DNA from: Eledone cirrhosa | Taxonomy: Eukaryota | Direction of reading: 5' to 3' | NCBI GenBank assembly: GCA_964016885.1 | Contig: OZ024742.1 | Location: 152,830,001-152,894,000 of the forward strand | DNA length: 64,000 nucleotides | Part shown: one piece after another, positions 1,595 through 59,939 of the stretch | Numbering within the stretch: position 1 is the first letter of the stretch | Layout of the letters: every line of letters begins with the position of its first letter | Notes under the pieces: generated by a model | What the model was told of the DNA's origin: nothing | The model's database searches: none | Seen by the model: the letters and a program-made list of their open reading frames with translations, nothing else | Position numbers and translations under genes: made by a program

Positions 1595-4500
1595 TTCTTC
1601 TGGTTTTATAATTTCACAAAGTTTTACCAAAGTTTTAGAGAGAGAGTCGGTTTCTAACATAGACACAAGACTCTCTCATTGGAATTTACACAACATCAAC
1701 TAGGTAGATATGTATGTATGCGTGTGTAGATATGGATGTTATTGTATGTGTGGATGTGTATGTTTTGAGTTATATATGTGCATGTGTATATGCTTTGCAT
1801 CTGTACATGTGTATATAGGAGTTATTAGATGCAAAATATTTGGAATGATTTACATATTTTTACTGTTCCATTAATGGATTGTACTTGTAATTTCCTAACT
1901 AGTTGTGTTCTTTCTGTTCCTCTGAAGCCTACGACTGTGAGGCAGTTACTAACATACCCCAGTGCCCCAATAATCACAGGCATAAATCTGAAGGTGTAAT
2001 CAGGGTGGAGTATCTGCAGATTTCTCATCAGTTCTGCATAAATATTCTCCTTTTCACTAATCTTTGATATTATAGTGGCATCTGCTGGGTAGCTAATTTC
2101 CACTACTGTGCATGCTTTCTTCTCCCTGTCCCATATAATATCAGGTCTGTTATGCTTGCATTTTATTGGGGATTTTACTGGAACATTCCACCAGTACTCT
2201 TTTATATTATCTACATGGATGTCTTCACATTGCTGTAGCTTTTAATGTGTTTATTATCGGGGCTATCTTTTTTACGAACAGCATTGTACAGTGCTTTGGC
2301 CACGACATCATGCCTCATAGGTAGATAGTACCGCGATGACATCTTTGGACGGCTGCTGATGACACGGGTGATATCCTTGATGTTAGTTCTGCACAGTCTG
2401 CACTTGTTATCACATCTAGGTGTTTTGCCTGCATCCCTATCGCTTTTATGAATCAAGTATTTCGTGTTAATCTCCTGTTCTTGGATTGCAAAAGCGTATC
2501 CTTCAAAGTGGGAGCCAATATAGGGGGTTGTTGGTCCAAGATAGACTACTTTCCTTATCTATATTACTTTCACTCTGGAGTTTCCTGGCAACATATCCAT
2601 ACATGATTTCTTCTGATAATTATGTAGTTTTTCATCCATGGTTCACTGCGATACTGCTGAGCGACTTCTCTGGGTGTGAGTTTTTGATTATCACACAGGG
2701 AATATCTCTCGAGGAGTTCCTTCCCAACTCTCATGATCTTATCTGTTTCATGTAGATAGACTTGCTCGAGAAACGGGCTCCTACGCTTCGAATTTCGTAG
2801 ATGTTGTCGAAGAGATATGATGCGACATTCAAATGTTGTCTGGACTGCTGTTAGGCCTCTGTCTCCCTGCTTACGTTTCAAGTAAAGGCGGTCTATGTCA
2901 CTGTTGGTGTGTAAGTTTCCGGTGTTGTTCAGTGTTTTTCGAGTTCCAACATCAACTGTTCGGATTTCGTCTATCGTCCTATTGAGTATTCCAAACTTTG
3001 GTGTTAGGACAGGCACAGCAAACACAGTGTGAGCCACTGTTTTGTTTTGCGCAGATAGTTCCGATGACCAGATCTTTCTTAATCGGGTGTAGTATTCTCT
3101 GGTTACGCGTTCTTTATTACAGATACCATTATAGGATATGTTCTCATCTATCCCCAGGTATCTGAAGCAGTCCACATCAGATATCGGTGAAACAGTTAGG
3201 CCATTGATAACAATGTTGTTAGATTGGGTGGTTGTTTTTCCCCGATTTACAGTCATGTATGAGCATTTATATTGGCCAAACTCCATTCCTATATCCTTTG
3301 AGAACGTTGTAACCAAGTCAAGATTTTTCTTCATCCCATCCATGTTCTTGGCATAGAGTTTCAGATCGTCCACAAAGAAATTATGGGTTATGTTCATATT
3401 TCTGTCCTCCTGTGAGCCAATGATATATCCCTCAAATTTCTTGAGTAGAAAGGACAAGGGGTTTAATGGCAAGATCAATATCACAGAGAGACTACCCCTA
3501 AAATATACCCCTGCAATATTTTATTTTATCAGTGAAAATAGAGTCCTCCCTCTCTGTCTTTAACCTTAGGATAGTAGCCCAGGAAGAAGACAGCTTCTCT
3601 ACGGTTCTGACAATAATGTCTGGGACTTTAGCAATTTGGAGGGCCTCTATCATCCAAAAGTGGGGAACAGAATCGAAAGCTTTCCTGTAGTCCAACCAGA
3701 CTGTAGTCATATTCCTCCTAAGTTGTCGCACCTCCGACATCGCAGATTTGTTGATTAGGAGTTGTTCAGGACATCCCCAAACCCCTTTCTTTCCAGCTGC
3801 TTGTTCATTTGTGAAGATGTTATTATTTTCACAGTGATCTTGGAGGAATAGGTTCAGGCTGTATACATCTTATACATCAGGTCCTGGCATGCAATGGGTC
3901 GGTCGTTTTTTGCCATGTGGGTGTCCTTGTTCTTGGGGACCAGTAATGTTTGTGCTAATGTCAACCATTCTGGTATAAGTGTATCTCCCTTAAGAACTTG
4001 TTGGTAGAGGTCAGTAAGATAACTCCGATAGAATATCAGTTTTTTGTACCAGTAGCCGACAATCATGTCTCTTCCTGGTGTTTTCTTATCTTGGAGTTTT
4101 CCTATCACAGTCTCAAGGGTACCCTCACTTATTTCGTATGTTTTTGTTGTAGTGTAGGAGCAATAATTATTTCGGATTTCTCTTAGCCACACTGCATCTT
4201 GGTTGAAATTCTTCTTTTCACCCCATATTTTGCTCCAAAAGGAATGTCTTTCTGGCATGGGGCCTCAGTGACACTTATTATTTTGCCCTTCATATCTCTA
4301 TAGACTGATGTTTGGTTTCGTCTGAATCTTTTATTAAGCACTTTTCTCTCATCTACCTTCTTCGGGTATCGGCGTTTTTCGCTAACAGCTCTCAATTCTT
4401 GTTTGAGGGTGATCAACTTATATTGGAGAGTTCTGGTTCTACTCTTACCAAACATCATCTCTATTTTGTTTTTCACTCTTTGCTGGTGAGGAGCGATGTT

Positions 4501-5695
4501 TTTTTGTGTTTGTTTGCATGTAAGGTGCATTGTCACATATCCTATGTTTTTTCGTAGGTCAGCAATCTTTTTTTCTATTTTAGTTATATATGATGGTATT
4601 TTTGGTGGTGTTCTGTTCTTGTTAATATCTCTGCTATCACCAAGATAATGCTTCACTGTCGTTGCTAAGGCATATAAACAGGTGTTGATTTGCCAAAATG
4701 TTGGGGTTTTTTATCCGTCGTAAATATTCATCCCCTATGTCGTCAATAACAGGTAATATTTAATTATTTGTTTTTTTTTTAAACATTGTCGTTTTAATAC
4801 ATTCAGCAAGAGATATATTTATACATGAATTAATTTCTATCTGGAAGATTTCGTTGAGGGAAAATTTCAATTGTTTATACTTTTGATTATTATCATTATC
4901 GATAGTATTTTCCACAAAGTCGAGGTAGACTCGGATGGTACACGTGGTGTCAAATTTCTTCGATTAATATTATTATTTCTTCGATTATTATTATTATCGA
5001 TAGTGTTTTCCCCAGCATTCGAGGTAGACTTACATGGAACAGGTGGTGTCAAGTTTCTTACAGGCATAGTTGTTTCAAGGCGCTGTTCGACCTGGTTGTA
5101 GGAAGTCTTGTAGCATGGCGAACTGTCTGTAGCACGTGTTGTTGATAACATGTTTCTTGTGGGGGACTTACAATTAATAATATTTATCTTATTTTTACGT
5201 TCAACAAACGTCGCTTGTTGGCGTAATTGTTTCGGTGTGAAATAATTTAGCTCTGGGTCTATTTCGTCCCAGTGTAGCTTTATTCTGTTCATATAGCCAA
5301 TGGAGGGATTGTTTTTTGCCATATAACAATTAAATAAATCATTATTAAGTCCGCAACTCCAAGAGAAATGCGAATTATGATTTCGGTTTCTTCTGTAGCT
5401 ACAACTGAATAAAGTTTGTTTACCTTCCTTGTTATTTGTCTTCGGTACTTCCTTAATTTTGTTGTTGATGTTGTGTTCATCCATGCTGTTTGTAGCAAAT
5501 CCTTGTAAAATGAATTATGAATTTAGTCGGATATCTCTACGAATTCGATAAAAATGTGTCTTCCGAAGATATAGTTAGAAGAATAACCAGTTATTCAACA
5601 TGACTGTAGTTGTGGCATTACTGTCGGAGATAGTATTCATCTTAAATTTAATAAATAGTCTCCCACGCCAAAATATGTGACTGATGGCGTTGACT
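1595..5695 (-). mobile_element. Near full-length decayed RLE-type non-LTR retrotransposon (R4/Dong-like): RT, CCHC finger, restriction-like endonuclease
   Basis: Broken frames with WLDYRKAFDSVPH, HNFFVDDLKLY, FRYLGI, DIDRLYLKRKQGDRGL, CRLC...YYLPMRHD, EISYPAD and PVIIGALG. Many stops and frameshifts. (TATG)n at both ends. Confidence 0.88.
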
Positions 5696-6075
5696 GTATG
5701 TATGTATGTATGTATGTATGTATGTATGTATGTATGTATGTATGAGTGAAAGGCCCCAGTTGCTGTCACAACACTATTCTAGGAGAGGAAAAACTGAAAA
5801 AAACCCCTGTGACTTCGGAAGCATCCGATGATATTGGCCAGTTCTCCTTTTCGGGAAGTGTTTTCGATTCTCAGAGAGTGGTATTGTTCAAGTGCAAGGC
5901 CTTTCCCCACTTAAAAAACTTTCAAAGCACAGGCATTGCTTGTTTAGAATATGTTGTTACAGTTTCGTGTGGCTGACCGTAGCCTAAAAGTGAACCAAAA
6001 CTCTATAATCTGAAATCAATTGCAATACTCTTAGCAGAGTTTGCAGTCATGTATGTATGTATGTATGTATGTATG

Positions 6076-7927
6076 TTTTCTCTTTCTCTTAATTTCGAGT
6101 ATATTTTTTTGACCGGCCACCTTCCTGGTGGCAAGGTTGTAAAAGAAAAGAAATTGTCATCCCTTGAATCGCAAGAATGTTTTGCATATTTTGAAGGTGC
6201 CAGCTATCGCAGCCATTTGTAGACTATGAATTAGGGAGCTGCGCTTTTTGTCCGCAAATCCAAGTTCGGTCATACTTTGGTCCAAGCGGGTTGGTATATA
6301 AACCGTAGCACCAATAATGATGGGTATGAAGCTAAAGGTGTATCTTGGATACTGGATTTGTAAGCTCCTCATCAATGGTCCGTAGATGTCCTCCTTCTCC
6401 TGTATTTTTCTGACAACGTTTACATCAAGTGGGCAGCTGATCTCCACAACAGAACACGTTTTCAATGTGTGGTCCCAAACTACAATATCAGGCCGGTTGT
6501 GCTTTAATTTGGTGGCAGTTTTTATTTTCAGGTTCCACCAGTATTCCTTAGTGCCATCTGTCTCAATATATTCTTCCTCGTTTGTTGTTAATTTTGTTTT
6601 CCGAAGTGCGTTCCAGATAGTTCTAGCTATCCCATCGTGTCTCATGGGGAGGTAGTAGCGAGATGACATTCTTTCACAGCTGGCAACAATGTGGCTTACA
6701 TCCTCGATCTTTGTTTTACATAGCCTACATTTATTGTCAGCTGCTGGCCCTCCTCTTTTGTGCAGCAGATATTTGGTAGGGAGTTCTTGTTCCTGTATTG
6801 CATAGAGATATCCCTCAAGGTGTGATGTCATAAACTTGTCGGAACTCCATGCCAGGCTTTTTGAGTGGTTTATCCCCTCTATGGTCTGTGTTTTACGCCT
6901 CAAGTATCCATGCACAACTTTCTCTGTAAATTGGTCAATTATTTTTCTTGTTTGAACATTGAATAGGATCTTCCGATTTCTCTGGGTGAGAGATTTATAT
7001 CAGGCTTTATTCCATATCTCTCCTCCAGATCAGTCGCTATTCTAATGATATTTCTTTTTTCATGCTCATAAACCTGAGCAAGATGGTCGCCAACCTTTTT
7101 CCTCTGTTGAAGGTGTTGCTTCAGTGTTACTATCCGGGTCTCATATGTTGTTAATATTGATTTTAGACCCCGGCCACCTTCCTTGCGTGAGAAGTATAGC
7201 CTATCCACATCACCATTGATGTCAAAGTTCCCAGTAACACTGAGAAGTTTTCGAGTTCTAACATCCATCTCACTTAGTTCTTGCAATGACCAGTTCAGTA
7301 GGCCAAATGTTGGCGTTAGAATTGGCACAGCATAGGTATTGTGGGCAATGTATTTGTTGTATGCTGACAGTTCTGATGACCATATTTTTTTTACTCTTCT
7401 GAGGTATTCAGTTCTGGTTCTCTCCTTATTTATGGGTCCATCATATCTGACATTCTCATCCTGTCCAAGATATCTGTAGTTGTCACCTGACTGCAGAGGT
7501 TGTATTGTCAGGCCGTTCATATCTAGATTTCTAGAGGAGGGCACAGCTCTTCCACGTTTTACTGCCAAATATGCACACTTGGACTCACCAAATTTCATTT
7601 TGATGTCGGTTGAAAATTGTGTAATTAGGTCCAATTGTTTCTTGATGTCATTGATATTTGGCCCATACAACTTCAGGTCATCAACAAAGAAAAGATGGGA
7701 GATACTTCTGGGCCCACTTCTTTGTCCACCTTGTTTCCTGAGTAGGTAAGATAGTGGATTCAGTGAGAGAACGAAGAGTAGTACTGACAAGCTATCACCC
7801 TGAAAGATGCCCTTCTGGTAATGTATCCTATCAGTCTTAACCTGCTCCTTCTCACCTCTAAGGATCAAATTGGTGTACCAGTTCTTGGTCAGGCGTTCAA
7901 CAGCAGCTACTAATGGTTGTGGGACTT
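6076..7927 (-). mobile_element. 5'-truncated R4/Dong-like non-LTR retrotransposon (second family)
   Basis: GIFQGDSLSVLLFVLSLNPLS, HLFFVDDLKLY, DVDRLYFSRKEGGRGL, CRLCKTKIEDVSHIVASC, NRPDIVVWD, VEISCP. One stop near 6939. Both ends abut (TATG)n. Confidence 0.92.
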
Positions 7928-9500
7928 TATGTATGTATGTATGTATGTATGTATGTATGTATGTATGTATGTATGTATGTATGTGTGTATGTATGTATAT
8001 ATGTAGGTATGTATGTGTGTATGTATGTATATATGTAGGTATGCATGTGTGTATGTATGTATATATGTAGGTATGTATGTGTGTATGTAGGTATGTAGGT
8101 ATATATGTATATATGTAGGTATGTTTGTATATATATAAGTATGTCTGTATGTGCAACCCCACCAAGGTTTCTTGGTGAGGAGGGTGACTTTGGACATCCC
8201 GCAGGACTAAAAAGTCACACTCGTTCAGCGCATCAGTAGGGGTTCTCCTACATGGATATAAAGTAGTGGCCGTACTCGAAAACGAGTTGGCAGCCACCAT
8301 GTATGTACGTATGTACATGTATATGTGTATGTAAGTGTGTATGTATGCATGTATTTACGTACGTATTTATATAAGTGCATATATATGTATGTATTTATGT
8401 ATGTATTCATGTCAAGTCGATCAGAAGAGCTACTGAAAACATTTAACCCACTACGACTTGTTGAATGGTTGGGGCATCGGCGATAAAATTGTCAATTCCA
8501 TCAATCTGGGTTGATGTTGATGGTGATATTTGATATCCTGCAGGAGTAAAATCAAATACCGTGAAAGGGTAGAGGAACTCATAAGATTCAACGGCCATCG
8601 AATTGGCTTAATAAGGGAAATTCTGATACAAAGCCTAAATATTTAGCTTTGCTTGTAACATGGGCGCGGTTCCGGAGAAGCCACATCAGCTATAATCCAA
8701 TTCATTCGTAAGAAAGCCTTAGACTCTAGAACAGATATCAGACAGTGTTTCAATCTAAACACCTTTGCTTATGTCTGTTGTTTATTTGGTCTTAGAAGTG
8801 GTCGAAATGCGAAACGAGTTGGCTTCCACTGTGCATGCATGTATGTGCGAGATGTATGTATGTATATGTGTATTTCCACATATATATGGGTGGGTACTTT
8901 TACCTGTGTATGCAATTATATATATATGTATGTGCGCGTGTTTATGTATTTTTATTGCATACTAAACTTCATGAATTTTCTTATAATTTCATTATAAATT
9001 CTGAATTAGTCATGCTCTTCCTGGAGAAAACACGGCAAATAAATCTTTCCACTGAAGAATGTAGGTTAAACAGGGGAGAGGGAAACATTTCTGAATCGGA
9101 GGGTAATTGGTCAATTTAGTTGTACTGATTAGTTTAGCTGAACTTCGATATGCGATAAATATAGCATATACATATATGTTTTTGTAGTTTGGGGAGAAAA
9201 ATATAATTATTGGAGATGGGGTGCATCCCCTCCCCTCCCCATATACATATATGAGACAATTGGGCAGGTCACTACAGGGGAGCTATAAATCGTAGCCAAA
9301 TCTCTCTCTAACTACAGGAACCACGTTTAGGAGCTACTTGTGAGCATATATTGTATAAACCAATGTAGAACCTCTACATGGTAGGTAGATCATATAAAAA
9401 TAATTGACAATTCTTCCCCAAGCCACACCATGCTGTGTCATGTAACTACAGCTCTCTCTCTTTCTCTCTCTCCCTCTTTCTCTATCTCCCTCTCTCTCTT

Positions 9501-9534
<34 letters not shown>

Positions 9535-9580
9535 TATTAAGAGAGTAAAACAAAGAAGCCTTCAATACATCAAAAGTCTT

Positions 9581-9629
9581 TATTAGCCGACAATGTTTCG
9601 TCCTATTAAGGACTCATCAGGGCAATTAA
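9581..9629 (-). ncRNA. Type I hammerhead ribozyme motif
   Basis: Minus strand: gcc CTGATGA gtcct-taat-aggac GAAA cattg TC ggc. Stems I and II pair and the core is canonical. Confidence 0.8.
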
Positions 9630-9985
9630 AACAACAAGAAGTAATATCGGCAGATACAAGCCGGAAGCTCCGAAGAATATGGAGTGTACATACACTGAAG
9701 TATTACAAAAATATATAATAAAAATATATGATAATAATTACTAAGGATGTATATAACATTAAGAACCATATTACAAATATAGTCCAAAGCAAAAACTAGA
9801 GCTAAACAAAGGTGGTTATATAGAGCAGGAATTTTATATAATACAATATAACATACTATAATATACCTTTACCAACATTAAAATTACAATAAAAATCAAA
9901 AGATACAATATGCATATGTATATATGTGCGCACACGTACACACACATACACATACAACAATACACACATCCATCTTCCACTGCAC

Positions 9986-11186: not shown

Positions 11187-11374
11187 ATGTATACGTACAT
11201 ATATATATTTATACAGACGTACAGTAGTATGTACATATATACGTGCACACATGTACGTACGGGTTTACCGAACATTTATTATAATGTTCGGTTTGTTTGT
11301 AAACAAACAAACACCCCGTATTACACCGTACAGTGTTCAGGCAACCATCGTCGCCTTTTTGTTCAACACTGACA
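11187..11374 (-). mobile_element. Fragment of the HHR/octamer repeat family at 45041-45520
   Basis: Reverse complement matches 45306-45505 (gtcagtgttgaacaaaa...aaacaaaccgaaca...aaatgttcggtaaaccc). It stops just short of the HHR. Confidence 0.8.
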
Positions 11375-14128: not shown

Positions 14129-14502
<374 letters not shown>

Positions 14503-15980: not shown

Positions 15981-17650
<1,670 letters not shown>

Positions 17651-30324: not shown

Positions 30325-30327
<3 letters not shown>

Positions 30328-30780
30328 CGATATTAATAAATGGAAACTATATTTATAAAACCATATTTATTTCATTATACATATTTCTTGGATACCACAT
30401 TAAATTGTGGTATGCCTTCATCAGACAAAATACAATATATAACAGTTTTACAAATAGCTTTGACGTACCCTTTTAAAATACAACCATTACTTTTGGAGGC
30501 TGTCTCAGCTGTCTCAGCCTCCAAAAGTAATGGTTGTATATAAAAAGGGTACGTCAAAGCTATTTGTAAAACTGTTATATATTGTATTTTGTCTGATGAA
30601 GGCATACCACAATTTAATGTGGTATCCCAGAAATATGTATAATGAAATAAATATGGTTTTATAAATATAGTTTCCATTTATTAATATCGTATATCTACTC
30701 CAAAAACTTGTCGAGTGCTTTATATCAGTTATAAAAATATTTACTTGTTGTATCCCAACAACTTTAAATAGAACTTTTGC
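30325..30780. mobile_element. Miniature family A palindrome: about 180-bp arms, HHRs at 30363-30438 (-) and 30579-30654 (+), 88-nt tail on the right
   Basis: Near-perfect hairpin centred on ggaggctgtctcagctgtctcagcctcc. Flanked by TA-rich repeats. Confidence 0.92.
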
Positions 30781-30854
30781 ATATATAAATAAATATATAT
30801 ATATAGATAGATAGATAAATATACACGGGTGTGTATGATTGTGTATAGAAGATT

Positions 30855-33092: not shown

Positions 33093-37045
<3,953 letters not shown>

Positions 37046-37753: not shown

Positions 37754-37772
37754 ATATATATATATATATATT

Positions 37773-38767
37773 AAAACAAATAACGAAACGAAATTAAATT
37801 TCGTTTCGTTTGTAACTCACATTTGTATGACTGACGCTTAAACAATTAAGTTAAAAATGTACATCCACATATGTATACTGAAATACTAGTATGCATATGA
37901 ATACATACACGTATACATATGTAGATGTACTGAGTTTTTCACTGGTCACTTTACTGTGAGTGTCCAGCTATTCTGTATGTAAACACACAGACAAACCGGT
38001 TTTTAGAGTCATACTGGTTTTTGAGGAAACACCTTTCCTCTATTCTCCAGAAAGCCAGACAAGGAATATTGAACTAGTTTCGATGTTGTTACATCTCATC
38101 AGCAATATTTACCTATCTTCCGGCCTCTCTAGAGAATCGTAAAAGCACATATCGTTATATGTTTTTTCTATGAAAATTAGTAGTGGGCAGACTAATTTGC
38201 ATAGAGCGTGAGTACGTACCGGTTCAACGGAGACGATAAAAACAAATAACGAAACGAAATTAAATTTCGTTTCGTTTGTAACTCACATTTGTATGACTGA
38301 CGCTTAAACAATTAAGTTAAAAATGTACATCCACATATGTATACTGAAATTTAATTTCGTTTCGTTATTTGTTTTTATCGTCTCCGTTGAACCGGTACGT
38401 ACTCACGCTCTATGCAAATTAGTCTGCCCACTACTAATTTTCATAGAAAAAGCATATAACGATATGTGCTTTTACGATTCTCTAGAGAGGCCGGAAGATA
38501 GGTAAATATTACTGATGAGATGTAACATCGAAACTAGTTCAATATTCCTTGTCTGGCTTTCTGGAGAATAGAGGAAAGGTGTTTCCTCAAAAACCAGTAT
38601 GACTCTAAAAACCGGTTTGTCTGTGTGTTTACATACAGAATAGCTGGACACTCACAGTAAAGTGACCAGTGAAAAACTCGGTACATCTACATATGTATAC
38701 GTGTATGTATTCATATGCATACTAGTATTTCAGTATACATATGTGGATGTACATTTTTAACTTAATT
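37773..38767. mobile_element. Retrozyme-like repeat with a unit of about 466 nt: 1.24 units (-) joined head-to-head to about 0.9 unit (+)
   Basis: caaataacgaaacg recurs at 37777 and 38243. HHRs at 38065-38109 (-) and 38505-38546 (+). Non-coding. Confidence 0.88.
38412..38419 (+). promoter_or_regulatory. Octamer ATGCAAAT in the retrozyme-like unit (mirror copy at 38195-38202)
   Basis: Exact octamer 100 nt upstream of the HHR core, conserved in the diverged family at 45183. Its function is inferred only. Confidence 0.45.
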
Positions 38768-40072: not shown

Positions 40073-41630
<1,558 letters not shown>

Positions 41631-41631
41631 T

Positions 41632-42179
41632 AAACAAATAACGAAACGAAATTAAATTTCGTTTCGCTTCTAACTCACTTTTGTATGACTGACGCTTAAA
41701 CAATTAAGTTAAAGTGTACATCTACATATGTATACGGAAGTATTAGTATGCATATAAATACACACATGTATACATATGTACATGTACTCAGCTTTTCACT
41801 AGACACTTTACAGTGAGTGTCAGCTAGTCTGTATGTAACCACACAGGCGGACCGGGTTTTAGAGTCATACGAGTTTTCAAGGAAACACATTTCCTCTATT
41901 CTCCAGAGGAGAAATAAATATTGCTGATGAGATGTAATAACATCGAAACTAGTCCAATATTCCTGTCTGGCCCTCTGGAGAATAGAGGAAATGTGTTTCC
42001 TTGAAAACTCGTATGATTCTAAAACCCGGTCCGCCTGTGTGGTTACATACAGACTAGCTGACACTCACTGTAAAGTGTCTAGTGAAAAGCTGAGTACATG
42101 TACATATGTATACATGTGTGTATTTATATGCATACTAATACTTCCGTATACATATGTAGATGTACACTTTAACTTAATT
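41632..42179. mobile_element. Second palindromic insertion of the 466-nt family; canonical HHR at 41917-41961 (+)
   Basis: aatattg CTGATGA gatg-taataa-catc GAAA CTAG TC caatatt. Same two outer ends as 37773-38767. Confidence 0.88.
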
Positions 42180-44755: not shown

Positions 44756-45040
44756 TAGCTTTTTTTATTTTATTTTCAATCTATTATTATTATTGTTAGT
44801 ATATATAATAAGTTCAGCATGGGTTTCACTGATAGTACCGTTTCTATCTCAGCGTACTCAATATTTAATGTTAAGTAAACTCCCTGAGTAGACATATAGT
44901 TATTTAGTTTAACACAACACATGTAAATGGGTACGTTCAATTTATACCCGTACTCGAGTTTCAGCCACACTTAATGCAGCAATCTACAGCCTGCATTCAT
45001 TATGCAACAATGGATAATCGCTGCCTGTTGTTTCATTAGC

Positions 45041-45520
45041 AGCCATCGTTGCGCTTTTGTTCAACACTGACAAAGGAACGATGAATTTATATTTAAATAT
45101 CAACCATACTAAGAGTGAGAAATGAAATTTCATTTTTTCCATTTCTCGTTTTCGGTACGCCCGTCCGACTAATTCACTCGATATGCAAATTAGGCTGCAC
45201 AGCAGTTAATATGCATAAGGAAAGTATATACTTTCAAACGTTCAATCGACTGACAGGAAGGTATACGGTGCTGATGACAGCTAGAAACTAGTTCATCGTT
45301 CCTTTGTCAGTGTTGAACAAAAGGGCAACGATGGTTGCCGAACACTGTACGGCTTAATTCGGGCTGTTTGTTTAAAAACAAACCGAACAATATAATAAAT
45401 GTTCGGTAAACCCATACGTACATATATATATAAATGTGTGTGCATGTATGTATGTATATGCATACTACTGTACGTCTGTATACATATATGTATATACGTA
45501 TACATACTTATATTTAAGTA
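45041..45520 (+). mobile_element. Retrozyme-like element related to the 466-nt family: octamer 45183-45190, minimal HHR 45265-45299, inverted 45-bp piece 45041-45085
   Basis: acggtg CTGATGA cagcta GAAA CTAG TT catcgt. 45041-45085 is the reverse complement of about 45292-45336. Confidence 0.75.
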
Positions 45521-45572
45521 TCAGCCGTTTTTTTTTCATTTATATATATTCATTTATATATATATTTGTTCC

Positions 45573-45631
<59 letters not shown>

Positions 45632-47804
45632 AAAGTTCTATTTAAATTGTTGGGATACAACAAGCAAATATTATTATAACTGATATAAAGCACTCGACAA
45701 ATATTTGGAGTAGATATACAATATTAATAAATGGAAACTATATTTATAAAACCATATTTATTTCATTATATATATTTCAAGGATACCAAGTTAAATCATG
45801 GTATGCCTTCATCAGACAAAATACAATATATAACAGTTTTACAAATAGATATTGACGTACCCTTTCGAAAAGGTGACCGTTGTTTTTGGAGGCCATCCGG
45901 ATAGTGGTTTGTTTACTTTAGTAAGTCATAGTTTAAGAGTAAGTAAAAATATGGAGAGACAGAGAAAAAAACGTGGAGAAAAGAAAGGGAAAGATAGATA
46001 AAGAAAAAGAAGAAAGCAAAAAGAAAAGAGAACAGAGGAAAAATAACGGGGAGATATCAAAGCATCAGACAGAGAAAGAACTCAAGAGAGAGAGATGCAG
46101 AGATAGAGAGAGGGGGGAGAGAACGAAAACCTTAAGTTATGTTATATTAAGTTGAGTTAACAATTGAGATGAAATGAATAAATAAAATTAGAAATATTAA
46201 TATTCGTGAATGGAATATAGATATATAATATGAGAAATTACACATTGTTTAATTATGATTATATATTTAGTTTAAAAATTTAGATCAATATATTAAAAAT
46301 TGGAATTTAAACATTATAAAATATATATATTGCTAGAGAGATTATCTATCGTACATAGGCAAGTTTACATAAATATATATATATACTCACTCACTCAGAA
46401 AATACACATTATATCTACTCCCGCACATAATGTATACATATAAAGCATAAGTGATTTTTTATTTATTGCTATACACTCCTTGTGTTATTAATTAAAAGAT
46501 TTTAGTATATATATATATAAAAATATACAGGATTAACTTTTCTGCATCTATGGCTGTTAAATTATGTATATCTGCAATCAAAAGCTGCATGAGTAAGCCT
46601 GTATATTCACACCAATAATTCTTAGCTATACATGAATAGATATGTGTGTGCATCTTCAATTGGTATACACGCGTCACTCATGCATATATACAGACAGACA
46701 TATAATCACAAAATAACCTATAACACATGTATATGTATGTCAACACACACATATAGATACATAAGCCGTACATAGACATAAGTATACATCAACATATAAC
46801 AGTACAATTGAGTATATAAAATACAAAAGGATTATATTTTGGAAATATAATTATATCAATATAACTTAAAAGGCAAACGAATTCTACAAACATCAAAATA
46901 CTAAAATATCCCAAAATATTATAGAATATTTCAAGTTAAAATAATATGTTTAATATATTTAGCATAGACATTTATCTTACATATATTTTAATCAAGACAT
47001 TGAGAGGACAAACTTTTGAAAATTATGAGAAGCTATCAGAATAAAAAAATAAATCTAATAAAAATTATGAGAAGCTATCAGAATAAAAACAAATCTAATA
47101 AAAAATAAAAAATAAAAAATAAAAAATAAAAAATAAAATGAATCTAATAAAAAAAATATAAATAAAATGAATCTAAGCTAAAAAAATAATATGTTTAGTA
47201 TAGAAATTTATCTTACGTATATTTTATTCCAGATATTGAAAGGAAAAACTTTTCTAGAATAGTTTATTATAATTATAATTATATTTATGAAGAAAAATGT
47301 ATACTTGGGAAAATGAAAAATGTGAAGGAATCTAATGATTTATCGACAGGTTTCTTATATTAATTAAATTATTTAATTAATTAAACTATATTTTAAATTT
47401 ATATTTATATTTAAACGTTGAGTTCAATCTATGTCTGCAGCAACTGAATAAATTATTTCTTAAATTAAGGGAATTTTTGGTATTTAATATAAAAAATATT
47501 TCCTCTATACAAAGATCACAATTTTCAGAAGAGGAATTAAAAGGAGTAGCTTATGAAATAATATTCCAAATCAACGAATATTCAACATTATCTCGTTTTA
47601 GGTCCCATAATAGGCTAAATAGCGATACAACAAGCAATATTATTATAACTGATATAAAGCACTCGACAAATATTTGGAGTAGTTATACAATATTAATAAA
47701 TAGAAACTATATTTATAAAACCATATTTATTTCATTATATATATTTCAAGGATACCAAGTTAAATCATGGTATGCCTTCATCAGACAAAATACAATATAT
47801 AACA

Positions 47805-48898
47805 TTTTTACACCTTAATCTAAAAGTAGAAATAGAGAATAACCAAAAAATAGTCAATTTTCTAGATGTAACACTAAATCTAAACACATGTCTTCATTAT
47901 CCATTTCACAAACTAAATGAGAACTTAAATTATATCAATTTTAACTCTAATCACCCTAGATCCATTAAAAATACTATAGTGAACTCGTTTCAAGAACGAA
48001 TTTCAAGAATTTCATCTAATAAGAATATATTTGATGAAAAAGCGCATTATTACAACGCAGCGTTAGGTAGAGCTGGGTATAGAAATAAAATTAAATACAT
48101 CGATAATAATAATAATATACAAAATAACCAAAATAATAACAACTTTAATTATGGTAACAATTTCAACAACTATAATAGAAAATATTACAATAACTCCAAA
48201 AGCCGAAAAAGAAATAGAACTAGGAATATATTATGGTTCGCTCCTCCTTTCTCACTAAATATTAAAACCCCTATTGCTAAACTATTCTTTAAAGCTCTTG
48301 ACAAACGATTCCCTAGAACACATAAATATTACTCAATTTTTAATAGACATACTATAAAATTAACTTACTCTTCCACCAAAAATTTAGCGCAAAATATTAA
48401 TAGAATTAATAATAGAAATTTAAAACCTAACCAAAATACCAATAACCTAAGCAATATTCAATCGAATAACTGTAACTTTCGAAATAAATCAAACCGTCCG
48501 TTAAATAACAACTGCTTAGCTAAAAATGTAGTTTATAATTGTAATGTTAAAACTAATTTAAATTCATTTATCTATGTCGGTTATACCTCTACAGAATTTA
48601 AATCCCGCTTCAATAATCATAGAAATTATTTTACAGATCCAAATAAAAAATCTTCACTTCGCTATTTAGCCTATTATGGGACCTAAAACGAGATAATGTT
48701 GAATATTCGTTGATTTGGAATATTATTTCATAAGCTACTCCTTTTAATACCTCTTCTGAAAATTGTGATCTTTGTATAGAGGAAATATTTTTTATATTAA
48801 AGACCAAAAATTCCCTTAATTTAAGAAATAATTTATTCAGTTGCTGCAGACATAGATTGAACTCAACGTTTAAATATAAATATAAATTTAAAATATAG
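47805..48898 (+). pseudogene. 5'-truncated Naiad-like RT/GIY-YIG coding region with a frameshift near 48657
   Basis: IVNFLDVTLNL, RNILWFAPPFS, VVYNC..YVGYT, then CDLCIEE..CCRHR in the shifted frame. Paralogous to 34223-35347. Confidence 0.9.
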
Positions 48899-49459
48899 TT
48901 TAATCAATTAAATAATTTAGTTAATATAAGAAACCTGTCGATAAATCATTAGATTCCTTCACATTTTTCATTTTCTTTGGTTAAGTACCCAAGTATAAAT
49001 TTTTCTTCATAAATATAATTATAAATATAATAAACTATTCTAGAAAAGTTTATCCTTTCAATACCTGGAATAAAATATACGTAAGATAAATTTCTATACT
49101 AAACATATTATTTTTTTAGCTTAGATTCATTTTATTTTTTTTTTTTTATTAGATTCATTTTATTTTTTATTTTTTATTTTTTATTTTTTATTTTTTATTT
49201 TTTATTTTTTATTTTTTATTTTTTATTTTTTATTTTTTATTTTTTATTTTTTATTTTTTATTTTTTATTTTTTATTTTTTATTTTTTATTTTTTATTTTT
49301 TATTAGATTTGTTTTTATTCTGATAGCTTCTCATAATTTTTATTAGATTTATTTTTTTATTCTGATAGCTTCTCATAATTTTCAAAAGTTTGTCCTCTCA
49401 ATGTCTTGATTAAAATATACGTAAGATAAATTTCTATGCTAAATATATTAAACATATTA

Positions 49460-50384
49460 AAAATTAGAATTAGAGCTCTGAAATAGCAATATATGTATGG
49501 ATGTATATATAATGTATTTTGCAGTACACTTTATGCTTAATTAAAAGCATTTTGAAGATCGTATGCTATTGTTTTAGAGTAGTGACAAATTCACTTACTT
49601 TAATCTCAGCAAACAGGGGAGATAAGCCGACAAGGCCTTGTTTCGCTTTTGTTGAAGCTTATCAAGGCTAACTAACCCTCCTGTCTACTGAGATTGCTGA
49701 TGTTATATTATTATAACGGTCTTCAAAATGCTTTTAATTAAGCATAAAGTGTATTGCAAAATACATTATATATACATCCATATATATATTGCTATTTCAG
49801 AGCTCCAATTCTAATTTTTAATTTCTGCCTGACCAACAATAGCTCTGTATAATCAGTTCCTGATTATTTACTAGAATTCTATAAGAATATAACATCAGTA
49901 ATCTCATTAGACAGGAGGGGTAGTTAGCCTTGATAAGCTTCAACAAAAGCGAACCAAGACCTTGTCGGCTTATCTCCCCTGTTTGCTGAGATTAAAGTAA
50001 GTGAATTTGTCACTACTCTAAAACAATAGCATACGGTCTTCAAAATGCTTTTAATTAAGCATAAAGTGTATGCAAAATACGTTATATATACATCCATATA
50101 TATATTGCTATTTCAGAGCTCCAATTCTAATTTTTAATTTCTGCCTGACCAAGAATAGCTCTGTATAATCAGTTCCTGATTATTTACTAGAATTCTATAA
50201 GAATATAACATCAGTAATCTCAGTAGACAGGAGGGGTAGTTAGCATTGATAAGCTTCAACAAAAGCGAAACAAGGCCTTGTCGGCTTATCTCCCCTGTTT
50301 GCTGAGATTAATGTAAGTGAATTTGTCACTACTCTAAAACAATAGCATACGGTCTTCAAAATGCTTTTAATTAAGCATAAAGTG
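49460..50384 (+). mobile_element. Retrozyme-like tandem repeat (316-317 nt unit, about 2.1 units + preceded by an inverted partial unit) with 14-bp TSD
   Basis: acggtcttcaaaatg at 49716, 50033 and 50349. HHRs at 49625-49669 (-), 49926-49970 (+) and 50242-50286 (+). TATTAAACATATTA at 49446-49459 and 50385-50398. Empty site in the mirror arm near 46940-46960. Confidence 0.92.
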
Positions 50385-51671
50385 TATTAAACATATTATT
50401 TTAACTTGAAATATTCTATAATATTTTGGGATATTTTAGTATTTTGATGTTTGTAGAATTCGTTTGCCTTTTAAGTTATATTGATATAATTATATTTCCA
50501 AAATATAATCCTTTTGTATTTTATATACTCAATTGTACTATGTTATATGTTGATGGATACTTATGTCTATGTACGGCTTATGTATCTATATATGTGTGTT
50601 GACATACATATACATCTGTTATAGGTTTTTTTTGTGATTATATGTCTGTCTGTATATATGCATGAGTGACGCGTGTATACCAATTGAAGATGCACACACA
50701 TATCTATTCATTTATAGCTAATAATTATGGGTGTGAATGTACAGGCTTACACATGCAGCTTTTGATTGCAGATATACATAATTTAACAGCCATAGATGCA
50801 GAAAAGTTAATCCTGTATATTTTTATATATATATACTAACATTTTTTAATTAATAACACAAGGAGTGTATAGCAATAAACATAAAATCACTTATGCTTTA
50901 TATGTATACATTATGTGCGGGAGTAGATATAATGTGTATTTTCTGAGTGAGTGAGTATATATATATATTTATGTAAATTTGCCTATGTATATGTGATATA
51001 CGATAGATAATCTCTCTAGCAATATATATATTTTATAATGTTTAAATTCCAATTTTTAATATATTGATCTAAATGTTTAAACTAAATATATAATCATAAT
51101 TAAACAATGTGTAATTTCTCATATTATATATCTATATTCCATTCACGAATATTAATATTTCTAATTTTATTTATTCATTTCATCTCAATTGTTAACTCAA
51201 CTTAATATAACATAACTTAAGGTTTTCGTTCTCTCCCCCCTCGCTCTATCTCTGCATCTCTCTCTCTTGAGTTCTTTCCCTGTCTGATGTTTTGATATCT
51301 CCCCGTTATTTTCCTCTGTTCTCTTTTCTTTTTGATTTCTTCTTTTTCTTTATCTATCTTTCCCTTTCTTTTCTCCACGTTTTTCTCTCTCTCTCTCCAT
51401 CTTTTTACTTACTCTTAAACTATGACTTACTAAAGTAAACAAACCACTATCCGGAACAACAACGGTCACCTTTTTGAAAGGGTACGTCAATATCTATTTG
51501 TAAAACTGTTATATATTTATTTTGTCTGATGAAGGCATACCATGATTTAACTTGGTATCCTTGAAATATATATAATGAAATAAATATGGTTTTATAAATA
51601 TAGTTTCCATTTATTAATATTGTATATATATATATATATATATATACATATATATCTATACACACTCATAC

Positions 51672-51702
<31 letters not shown>

Positions 51703-52164
51703 CACACACATATATATATACACACACACACACATGTATATATATGTATATACATATATATATACATATTATATATATATATATATATATATATCATAAA
51801 TCATGTCCTTAGAATTATTAGATAAAATATATACCATTTCCTCTCCAAATTAGCATAATTAACCATACAAAAAATCAATTTGACCAAGCTATAAGAATAA
51901 AGGCTCTTATGAAGAAATTTCCGACGAATAACCGAAAGCGGCCTCTTCGCGGTGGCCCCAATAGAGTATTTATCCAAAATTTTAACAGCATGTAGAAACT
52001 GACTAAATATATGTCCGGAGTATCGGTTTCATCAGGAGCCAACTCAAAATTAGACATTTAGATTTCCAAAGTGATCGCGCCATATATATATATATATATA
52101 TACATATATATATACACATATATAAATATACACACATATAAATATCTGGGTTGTCCATTGTAAA

Positions 52165-57142: not shown

Positions 57143-59921
57143 GGAAAGTTATATTTAAATTGTTGGGTTACAACTAGTAAATATTTATAACTGATATAAA
57201 AGCACTCGACAAATATTTGGAGTATATTTACAATATTAAATAAATGGAAACTATATTTATAAAACCATATTTATTTCATTATATATATTTCAGGGATATC
57301 ATATTAACAATATGCTATGCCTTCCTCAGACAAAATACAATATAAACAGGTTTATAGATAAATAGATTTGACATACCGTAACAACATCGACTTGTATTTG
57401 AAAAAGTTGAATTGGCAGTGAAAAAATTGTACACAGAGAGAAAGAAAGAGAGAAAGAAAAAAGAAAAGAAAGACAGAAAACGAAGAAAAAGAAGAAAAAG
57501 AAGAAATGCATGGAACAAAATAGAGAGATGGAAAGATAGATAAAGAGAAGAACTTCATGTAAAGAAACAGAGAGAGATATATATATATAGAGATAGATAT
57601 ATATATAGATAACTAGGTAGTGGGACGTCCGTTGAGTAAACGTATCAATGACACATTTATTTATTTATTTATTTATTTAGCTCTAGTATTAATGTAAGGG
57701 AGATATATGGAGAGAAACCAGCTGTTATATAGAGAGAAAAATTTAAAAATAACCAGACATAGGCGAGGCGTAAAAACCCTATGTTTTAATGTATGTATAA
57801 AAACCAGCCACTATTTTGTAAATATCAGTATTCTTGAATGAGACATGTACCCATAATGTGTGAAAAGTAATGATCTCATGTTTAGTTTTTTTTTTAAATT
57901 CATATGTGATAACTACAAACATCTATGTGAATTTACATGATCAACTCTGCAAACCCTAAGGTGACGGAAAACATTCTCATTGTGGTATAAAAATTTAAGT
58001 ATACATATATGTATATATATATACACACAAATATATATAGAGTCAATATTACTACTATTCCTGTCTTTACTCTACAAGATTATCTATCAAGCAGAAATAG
58101 AGAGCAGATTTCAATATACTAATATAAATATATATCAGAAACAAAACTAAAAAATAACAATAATAATAATAATAAAATAGAAAACTAAAAAATATTACGA
58201 AAGAATATTACATATTAAAAATATTACATATTAAAAATATTAAAAATAAAAATATTAGAAAATACTACAATAATAAAAATAAAAATAAAAATAAAAATAA
58301 AAATAAAAATAAAAATAAAAATAAAAATAAAAATAAACCACAAAGATCAACCCTTCAAAATTAATTGACAATATATTGCCAAGTTCATTATAAGCATCAG
58401 AGTCGAAAAACAGATAAAGCCAAAAATTATCTATCAAATCGCATCTAGCAAAGATCATTTCAAAAAGTTTAGGATGCCCATTTGGTCTACATTTTTATTT
58501 AAACATTCTTCATGAAAAATTTAGCTACCCTAAAAGTTGATGCTCCAAATATTTCGAATAAACGTTACACTAGATAAACTTCTATATTAAATATAAGAAC
58601 ACATGTAGACCAAATGGGCATCCTAAACTTTTTGAAATGATCTTTGCTAGATGCGATTTGATAGATAATTTTTGGCTTTATCTGTTTTTCGACTCTGATG
58701 CTTATAATGAACTTGGCAATATATTGTCAATTAATTTTGAAGGGTTGATCTTTGTGGTTTATTTTTATTTTTATTTTTATTTTTATTTTTATTTTTATTT
58801 TTATTTTTATTATTGTAGTATTTTCTAATATTTTTATTTTTAATATTTTTAATATGTAATATTTTTAATATGTAATATTTTTAATATGTAATATTTTTAA
58901 TATGTAATATTTTTAATATGTAATATTCTTTCGTAATATTTTTTAGTTTTCTATTTTATTATTATTATTATTGTTATTTTTTAGTTTTGTTTCTGATATA
59001 TATTTATATTAGTATATTGAAATCTGCTCTCTATTTCTGCTTGATAGATAATCTTGTAGAGTAAAGACAGGAATAGTAGTAATATTGACTCTATATATAT
59101 TTGTGTGTATATATATACACATATATGTATACTTAAATTTTTATACCACAATGAGAATGTTTTCCGTCACCTTAGGGTTTGCAGAGTTGATCATGTAAAT
59201 TCACATAGATGTTTGTAGTTATCACATATGAATTTTAAAAAAAAACTAAACATGAGATCATTACTTTTCACACATTATGGGTACATGTCTCATTCGAGAA
59301 TACTGATATTTACAATATAGTGGCTGGTTTTTATACATACATTAAAACATAGGGTTTTTACGCCTCGCCTATGTCTGGTTATTTTTAAATTTTTCTCTAT
59401 ATATAACAGCTGGTTTCTCTCCAGATATCTCCCTTACATTAATACTAGAGCTAAATAAATAAATAAATAAATAAATGTATCATTGATACGTTTACTCAAC
59501 TGACGTCCCACTACCTAGTTATCTATATATATATCTATCTCTATTTCCTCTCTCTCTTTATATATATATATATATATCTCTGTTTCTTTACATGAAGTTC
59601 TTCTCTTTATCTATCTTTCCATCTCTCTATTTTGTTCCATGCATTTCTTCTTTTTCTTCTTTTTCTTCGTTTTCTGTCTTTCTTTCCTTTTTTCTTTCTC
59701 TCTTTCCTTCTCTCTGTGTACAATTTTTTCACTGCCAATTCAACTTTTTCAAATACAAGTCGATGTTGTTACGGTATGTCAAATCTATTTATCTATAAAA
59801 CTGTTTATATTGTATTTTGTCTGAGGAAGGCATAGCATATTGTTAATATGATATCCCTGAAATATATATAATGAAATAAATATGGTTTTATAAATATAGT
59901 TTCCATTTATTTAATATTGTA
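57143..59921. mobile_element. PLE family A non-coding palindrome: arms 57229-58491 / 58603-59921, spacer about 110 nt, 86-nt left tail
   Basis: Near-identical mirrored arms homologous to the 3' UTR at 35480-36916. HHRs at 57267-57343 (-) and 59807-59883 (+). Confidence 0.93.
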
Positions 59922-59939
59922 TACATATATATATATATG

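Follow-up and report, generated by a model that had tools for sequence, protein, structure and literature searches.

How did a non-coding tandem repeat carrying hammerhead ribozymes, with one end inverted, come to lie inside a decayed PLE? This question is raised by the 925-bp insert at positions 49460-50384 of the window (i.e. the whole 64-kb stretch of DNA that was analysed). The insert quite probably belongs to a new family of animal non-LTR retrozymes and was placed there by PLE two-strand priming. Retrozymes of this kind, and the proposal that PLEs mobilise them, are already known; this copy represents a new family with a variant ribozyme core, and bears a clear PLE-type scar at its junctions.

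The 316-nt unit and its target site

The insert consists of an inverted 256-bp arm followed by 2.1 direct units of 316/317 bp, all enclosed by a 14-bp target duplication. Tandem Repeats Finder reported a period of 316, 2.1 copies and 97% matches for the direct segment (49716-50384), and self-BLAST aligned 49460-49715 as the reverse complement of unit positions 49880-50134 (95.8% over 260 nt). The preliminary description of about 2.1 direct units plus an inverted partial unit was borne out by both programs. The locus contains the following features:

46942..46955, minus strand: empty site in the mirror arm of the host PLE
49446..49459, plus strand: left copy of the target duplication; its final 4 nt also match the unit
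49460..49715, minus strand: inverted 5'-truncated arm (unit positions 49880-50134), bearing the long end, a candidate 'tail' end
49607..49683, minus strand: intact type I hammerhead motif with U3-A8 core; predicted cut after 49629
49716..50032, plus strand: direct unit 1, 317 nt; predicted cut 49966; A15.1C (49954) and a stem-III G-to-A change (49959)
50033..50348, plus strand: direct unit 2, 316 nt; predicted cut 50282; C2.1A (50245), where the family majority is C
50349..50384, plus strand: partial third unit, carrying the short end of the direct arm
50385..50398, plus strand: right copy of the target duplication; its initial 4 nt also match the unit

The duplicated 14-mer, TATTAAACATATTA, occurs exactly three times in the 64 kb (49446-49459, 50385-50398 and 46942-46955 on the minus strand), the last of these being the uninterrupted empty site in the mirror arm of the host PLE. 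A 14-bp target duplication with an empty site in the mirror arm, as first proposed, was therefore confirmed, with 14 bp as the maximum length because four bases at each junction (ATTA on the left, TATT on the right) fit the duplication and the unit alike; the duplication shrinks to 6 bp once both microhomologies are given to the element. At the central junction (49715/49716) two truncated 5' ends meet head to head with zero shared and zero extra bases. The 3' end of the direct arm lies +102-106 from the predicted cut (i.e. the short end) and that of the inverted arm +168-172 (i.e. the long end), an offset of 66 nt. The truncated 5' end of the inverted arm sits within a 10-bp palindrome of the unit (49873-49882); palindromes at inversion junctions are recorded for rotifer PLEs in PMC3846280.

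The unit has a GC content of 33% and a single ORF of at least 40 aa (57 aa, minus strand). A tRNA search of the unit returned none, and hence no tRNA-derived head, and self-comparison of the insert showed neither a terminal direct repeat past the tandem units nor an LTR pair. The insert has no poly(A) or simple-repeat 3' tail and no ORF with the RT plus GIY-YIG of an autonomous PLE. A MITE or DNA transposon was rejected, as the inverted arm ends 66 nt past the end position of the direct arm and the interior is tandem. When folded as a circle, unit 1 was stabler than 100/100 shuffles (z -4.5). No further copies of the unit were found elsewhere in the 64-kb window.

Hammerhead ribozymes of the unit

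All three copies of the unit contain a type I hammerhead motif with GAAA, a GUC site, a palindromic stem III, a 4-bp stem II and a 6-nt loop 2. The core reads UUGAUAA, with a compensated U3-A8 pair, instead of CUGAUGA; the canonical 3-8 core pair is given as C3-G8 in PMC3884650. Covariation to U3-A8 is found in nature, with activity in vitro cited, according to Perreault et al. 2011 (PMC3088659), and approximately 1,300 minimal U3-A8 motifs are reported from Schistosoma by Cervera and de la Pena 2014 (PMC4209133). The cut sites predicted earlier for the direct units (49966 and 50282, spaced by 316 nt) were correct, and that of the inverted copy falls at 49629 on the minus strand. Stem I had been put at about 30 bp; a constrained fold gave ~24-25 bp, the first 4 bp being followed by an internal loop. 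Rfam searches at the gathering score returned no matches across the whole 64-kb window. In E-value mode, Hammerhead_HH9 matched all three copies at 26.7, 21.2 and 18.3 bits as compared to a gathering score of 52 (best E = 2.4e-4 for the 781 nt searched). For a possible tertiary contact between loop 2 and the stem I bulge, the 6-nt loop 2 aligned to the HH9 loop and stem I has its internal loop after 4 bp, but in a register that differs from the model. MicroRNA matches were set aside as (TA)n noise.

The preliminary description assigned one hammerhead to each unit. This holds for the motif, but both direct-unit copies are damaged, and an intact core with intact proximal stems was found in the inverted copy only (1/3 copies). 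The unit 1 ribozyme carries a private A15.1C and a stem-III change, whilst that of unit 2 carries C2.1A, which breaks the first stem-I pair and is private since C occupies position 50245 in the family (401/454 reads). As both direct-unit ribozymes carry damaging changes, the 316-nt monomer earlier attributed to the 49460-50384 locus is unlikely to arise there, and the locus is, on these changes, likely a dead copy. The predicted minimum-energy folds of longer constructs of the inverted copy and unit 2 bury the core by 5.2-6.3 kcal/mol. A canonical hammerhead at 9589 gives 5.6 kcal/mol too, so the inhibitory helix is not distinctive, and U3-A8 was dropped as the source of a built-in inhibitory helix. 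The latter hammerhead is a solitary canonical type I motif (9580-9635, minus strand, predicted cut 9589) with a GCC/GGC proximal stem I like that of the 316-nt unit; no further copies of it were detected in the window.

Divergence and age of the insert

The arms of the host differ at 34/1789 aligned positions (1.9%) and units 1 and 2 differ at 7/316 (2.2%), a divergence no greater than that of the host arms (Fisher P 0.66). Given these comparable levels (7/316 versus 34/1789), the insert would be about as old as its host, provided that the host arms were not homogenised. Between the inverted arm and the direct copies, 10/255 and 6/189 positions differ (3.2-3.9%). Across 256 three-way columns, private changes numbered 3, 3 and 6, with one further column in which all three copies differed. 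The inverted arm carries 6-7 private changes versus 2.4 expected (P 0.01-0.06 over three tests; Poisson 0.04 to 0.01), an excess that hints at a second template molecule. Both direct units have A at 50157, where C makes up ~99% of contig depth and 286/297 reads (A in at most 4% of the family). The sequences of units 1 and 2 are compatible with their having been identical when inserted, as if one circle had been read twice; a homogeneous array would also fit.

The host PLE and an end rule within the window

The host was delimited by the following features:

45629..51626: decayed Hydra-clade PLE with inverted arms; an RT-end/GIY-YIG fragment spans ~47785-48958 (plus strand)
Predicted cuts at 45767 (minus strand), 47736 (minus strand) and 51574 (plus strand): minimal hammerheads of the host

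The left arm of the host (45538-47625) mirrors 48659-51801 apart from the insert, as determined by self-BLAST, and its outer ends lie at ~+138 (left) and +49-52 (right), each beside (TA)n. A relative at 34205-35347, 77.6% identical to the host, has a CxCX5C linker and lacks CCHH; the linker of the host itself is decayed. Among homologs of this relative, RWK was present in P0002 and P0003 and DKT in P0002 and in the matching N-terminal segment of P0003. A Pfam search of both PLE fragments matched no families. The Hydra clade is defined in PMC8557442 by a CxCX5C linker without CCHH, RWK and DKT motifs, a hammerhead and (TA)n targets, and on these sequence features the host belongs to that clade. 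In the middle of the host, an additional inverted hammerhead-bearing pLTR piece (47624-47812) separates the left arm from the ORF fragment. The right arm contains a 67-bp direct repeat (49044-49110 and 49384-49450) flanking (TTTTATT)n, which is mirrored at 47187-47253 and 46951-47017; the (TTTTATT)n tract is far longer in the right arm than in the left. The target of the retrozyme overlaps the end of the second copy of this 67-bp repeat.

Four inverted PLE structures are present in the window (30325-30784, 33216-37001, 45629-51626 and 57145-59923). All four have one short and one long end, at ~+50 and ~+138-141 from the hammerhead cut, so that the distance from short to long in the Hydra-clade PLEs of the window is ~86-90 nt (host ~86), which exceeds the 30-40-nt tail known from other clades. 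A lone fifth PLE arm (14187-14385) has a short end. The same plan was observed in a second hammerhead repeat, a 466-nt unit with a canonical C3-G8 core and a short palindromic stem III that is present at 37770-38767 and 41630-42179. In both copies the inverted arm has the long end (~+302) and the direct arm the short end (+225 to +228), in (TA)n, with an offset of ~74 nt. The one-short/one-long plan of the 316-nt insert is that of the PLEs of the window and of the second repeat. This common rule adds strength to the retrozyme identity and PLE-type integration originally proposed for the locus, which were supported.

Alignment of the 316-nt unit to three segments of the host PLE on both strands gave no score above shuffles (13 to 157 of 200 shuffles scored equally high), and derivation of the unit from the host pLTR was dropped for this reason. 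Comparison of the unit to the 466-nt repeat likewise gave no alignment above shuffles. The host family ends in (TA)n, whereas the 316-nt retrozyme has a cleanly duplicated target in ordinary AT-rich DNA. Given this difference in targets and the lack of unit/host homology above shuffles, the host need not be the mobiliser. The 466-nt repeat is a stronger candidate than the 316-nt retrozyme for a non-autonomous partner of the Hydra-clade PLEs.

Other elements were noted nearby. A third hammerhead-bearing element (45039-45420, predicted cut 45293 on the plus strand) has a 47-bp inverted head, lies ~200 nt to the left of the host PLE and has a partial copy at 11254-11374 (88% over 121 nt). Fragments at 1825-8354 on the minus strand are taken by us to be the RT and C-terminal pieces of two decayed non-LTR retrotransposons, and 16342-16974 is presumably a fragment of a Tc1-like transposase.

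The repeat family in sequencing reads

Parts of the unit were detected in 14 of 23 runs from 12 studies; none of these contained half of the unit's words and eight contained small shares. Family reads and contigs from four runs (X1, X4, X5 and X21, the last consisting of RAD reads) were aligned to one unit plus 86 nt of flank, yielding 1404 contigs (X1), 33 contigs (X5), 3 contigs (X4) and 2840 reads (X21), figures that count aligned pieces and not copy number. The family is abundant in one read-set organism. Exact-pattern scans for the unit gave no matches in metagenome contigs, prokaryote genomes or viral contigs. A head-to-tail joint was seen in all four aligned runs, indicating that the family is tandem. 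In X21, 88% of aligned reads continue into unlike sequence, and so the family is dispersed or diverse, beyond long uniform arrays alone. Three opposite-strand joints from other copies were observed (one contig and two sets of 4 reads), some of which may be RAD chimeras.

No core-position change was present among the 40 of 74 family variants listed, and the loose ends of five X1 contigs and one X5 contig read through the U3-A8 core. Pairing can be kept in all of the stem-I variants listed (50216, 50226, 50242 and 50309), which are unphased. Together, the invariant core among these 40 of 74 variants and the compatibility of the unphased stem-I variants with pairing argue for selection on the ribozyme of the family.

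Sequencing depth identified one further feature:

50307..50372, plus strand: enriched among family reads and contigs; a candidate module for cis action or initiation

Depth over this segment was two to three times that over the ribozyme. A peak of 787 read ends was observed at 50372 (i.e. +90) against a depth of 935 in the X21 RAD library, and the flanks at this peak are heterogeneous and T-rich (330 loose ends, agreement 0.35). Further ends lie at +165 (another locus, adjoining a TA-type target) and +148 (a single contig), among the 18 of 206 loose ends listed. Hence the few family ends seen look clustered at ~+90 to +106 and +148 to +172 from the cut, and an expectation that the ends would be permuted across copies looks wrong. 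These ends, again for the 18 of 206 listed, fit fixed internal starts of reverse transcription. The +90 peak may alternatively mark the edge of a module common to diverged subfamilies, at which the alignment stops. Read ends at 50126-50136 were not relied on as a long start site because length polymorphism there can clip alignments. Both the +90 peak (50367-50372) and the short end of the second family (38762-38767) directly follow a UUAAUU hexaloop, a likeness spotted post hoc; a common hairpin at short ends was dropped as none of four hairpins beat shuffles (z -0.15 to -1.58).

Proposed mechanism of insertion

The inverted 5'-truncated head, the duplication and the one-sided tail of the insert match the typical PLE unit as described in PMC3846280 and PMC8557442; according to the former (Arkhipova et al. 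2013), a Penelope insertion typically has an inverted pLTR, a duplication of 8-10 bp and a tail on one of its arms. A PLE protein of the anole was reported by Frangieh et al. 2024 (PMC11167929) to cut and extend both strands, to favour ATT and to start reverse transcription internally at two sites, the main one 111-118 nt into the ORF with the hammerhead cut at 26. Computed from these positions, the main start falls +85 to +92 after the cut; its agreement with the +90 read-end peak may be a coincidence, and the 316-nt copy itself ends off that peak, at +102-106. In the same report, priming proceeds without homology and uncleaved RNA is the main substrate in vitro; unlike this homology-free priming, both junctions of the 316-nt insert show 4-nt microhomology.

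The following series of events would produce the observed layout. A tandem source would be transcribed, its U3-A8 hammerheads would cut 316-nt monomers and a host ligase would close these into circles. At an AT-rich target, a PLE protein would then make nicks in both strands, separated by no more than 14 bp, and each 3' end would prime cDNA at an internal position of the template, one at ~+102 and the other at ~+168 relative to the cut. One cDNA would go 2.1 times round the template, across two cut/ligation sites, and the other would stop after 256 nt. The end state, visible in the sequence, is two truncated 5' ends joined head to head and a duplicated target. Private mutations subsequently hit both direct-unit ribozymes, by which the locus is predicted to have died. 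Whether an abundant tandem non-coding hammerhead repeat was integrated in this way, by a PLE nuclease and RT from a probably circular RNA, is a proposition that we hold to be evenly balanced. More tentatively still, a conserved module of ~65 nt located 3' of the ribozyme might recruit the PLE protein, with the nicked strands priming at two fixed sites and one cDNA rolling past the ligation site repeatedly; circles would then be PLE substrates, and two unrelated hammerhead repeats would follow one end rule without sequence common to the neighbouring PLE.

The template need not have been circular. Two-ended PLE integration from an uncleaved linear multimer of a tandem array, with no circle and with a ribozyme dispensable for insertion, finds support in the head-to-tail joint seen in all four runs, and the mild surplus of changes in the inverted arm would suit another unit or molecule as its source. 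Hammerhead mutants of the anole PLE insert normally and unprocessed RNA is the main in vitro substrate (PMC11167929), and in the Xenopus study eight of nine retrozyme dimers assayed failed to cleave (bioRxiv 10.64898/2026.07.22.740005). This reading is nevertheless rather unlikely: the cDNA spans two cut sites, which would be rare in linear RNA if the ribozyme was active, most of the invertebrate retrozymes assayed in PMC7229834 cleave efficiently and accumulate as circles, and the divergence between units 1 and 2 does not exceed that of the host arms.

Twin priming, the mechanism used by L1, offers a route to the same layout through a LINE (non-LTR) enzyme. A duplication of up to 14 bp, the 5' inversion and the short microhomologies at both ends are all L1-like, and two ORFs of the window (2570-3520 and 6939-8354) are presumably non-LTR RT fragments. 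The lack of a poly(A) or simple-repeat tail, the overlap of the arms by ~100 nt where twin-primed arms would abut, and the occurrence of the one-short/one-long rule in the PLEs of the window make a LINE origin improbable. A low probability was also given to an event at the DNA level, by which repair of a staggered break captured a satellite fragment or extrachromosomal circle, or an inserted stretch of roughly one unit was later duplicated in place. Tandem copies do exist, there is microhomology at both junctions, and units 1 and 2 are closer together (2.2%) than to the inverted arm (3.2-3.9%). However, the six private alleles of the inverted arm are absent from the 40 of 74 family variants listed, so that among these there is no sign of a branch common to units 1 and 2; the two-armed layout with fixed ends recurs in the second hammerhead repeat, and a clean duplication, together with an empty site left intact, is what nick-primed insertion typically yields. 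The inversion junction of the insert is missing among the joints listed, but no listed piece spans the stretch, so that this absence is no proof of a fold-back chimera or collapsed repeat in the assembly; with private substitutions in all three copies, an exact duplication and an empty site, such an artefact is extremely improbable. PLE two-strand priming thus remains the preferred explanation.

Comparison with known systems

Animal non-LTR retrozymes were defined by Cervera and de la Pena 2020 (PMC7229834), where PLEs are named as strong candidates for their mobilisation. Li, Clavereau and Pollet 2026 (bioRxiv 10.64898/2026.07.22.740005) added PLE co-occurrence and pLTR homology; in the available text of this preprint junctions were not analysed and the mechanism was left open. 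A 2020 review (PMC7761336) states, in the part available, that the repeats show no motif identifying their partner. The enzyme that copies animal retrozymes, and the manner of priming on an RNA without a free end, are described as open in the accessible portions of all three sources. Among the titles and abstracts listed by searches outside subscription journals, and in the text consulted of PMC7229834, no description of inverted heads or one-sided tails in retrozyme insertions was found. To the prior support from co-occurrence and pLTR homology, the 49460-50384 insert adds an integration scar with an internal empty-site control, and it names two candidate start sites that are testable with purified PLE protein. 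If the proposed mechanism is true, one could predict where genomic copies end, and a target-primed enzyme would have a natural template in circular RNA; a family-wide U3-A8 core would, if true, mean that searches requiring the standard core miss such families.

Plant LTR retrozymes, as described in PMC7229834 and bioRxiv 10.64898/2026.07.22.740005, are hammerhead-bearing non-autonomous retroelements with circular RNA intermediates, traits that the 316-nt element would share. Their hammerheads are of type III and are accompanied by LTRs, a primer-binding site and duplications of 4 bp, whereas in the 316-nt element the hammerhead is of type I, an LTR pair is lacking and the duplication is longer. 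In the account given for Xenopus, 24/57 retrozyme families match known elements, with 21/22 of those matched being PLEs, whereas the 316-nt unit is without detectable homology to the neighbouring PLE arms.

With the canonical endonuclease-positive PLE unit (Pen2a_Av, PMC3846280; Hydra, Naiad and Poseidon clades, PMC8557442; anole PAc, PMC11167929), the insert shares, so far as these sources describe it, an adjacent inverted 5'-truncated copy, a duplication of comparable length (reported as 8-10 bp), an extension confined to one arm, an AT-rich target and 3' ends downstream of the hammerhead. It differs in having no ORF, RT or GIY-YIG, in its full-size hammerhead with a long stem I in place of a minimal one, and in an end offset of 66 nt as compared to the 30-40 reported (host PLE ~86, second repeat ~74). 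The compensated 3-8 pair is common to the 316-nt unit, the U3-A8 variants of PMC3088659 and the minimal hammerheads of the Schistosoma Cercyon PLE (PMC4209133). Unlike the minimal motifs described for Cercyon, U3-A8 here appears family-wide and is set in the full-size type I ribozyme of a tandem retrozyme. The closest likeness is to the animal non-LTR retrozymes as characterised in PMC7229834 and bioRxiv 10.64898/2026.07.22.740005, with tandem non-coding units of 150-450 bp, a GC content under 50% (33% here), one type I hammerhead per unit, a duplication of >4 bp and co-occurring PLEs with minimal hammerheads as common features; from these the 316-nt unit is set apart by its U3-A8 core, its inverted head and its two unequal ends.
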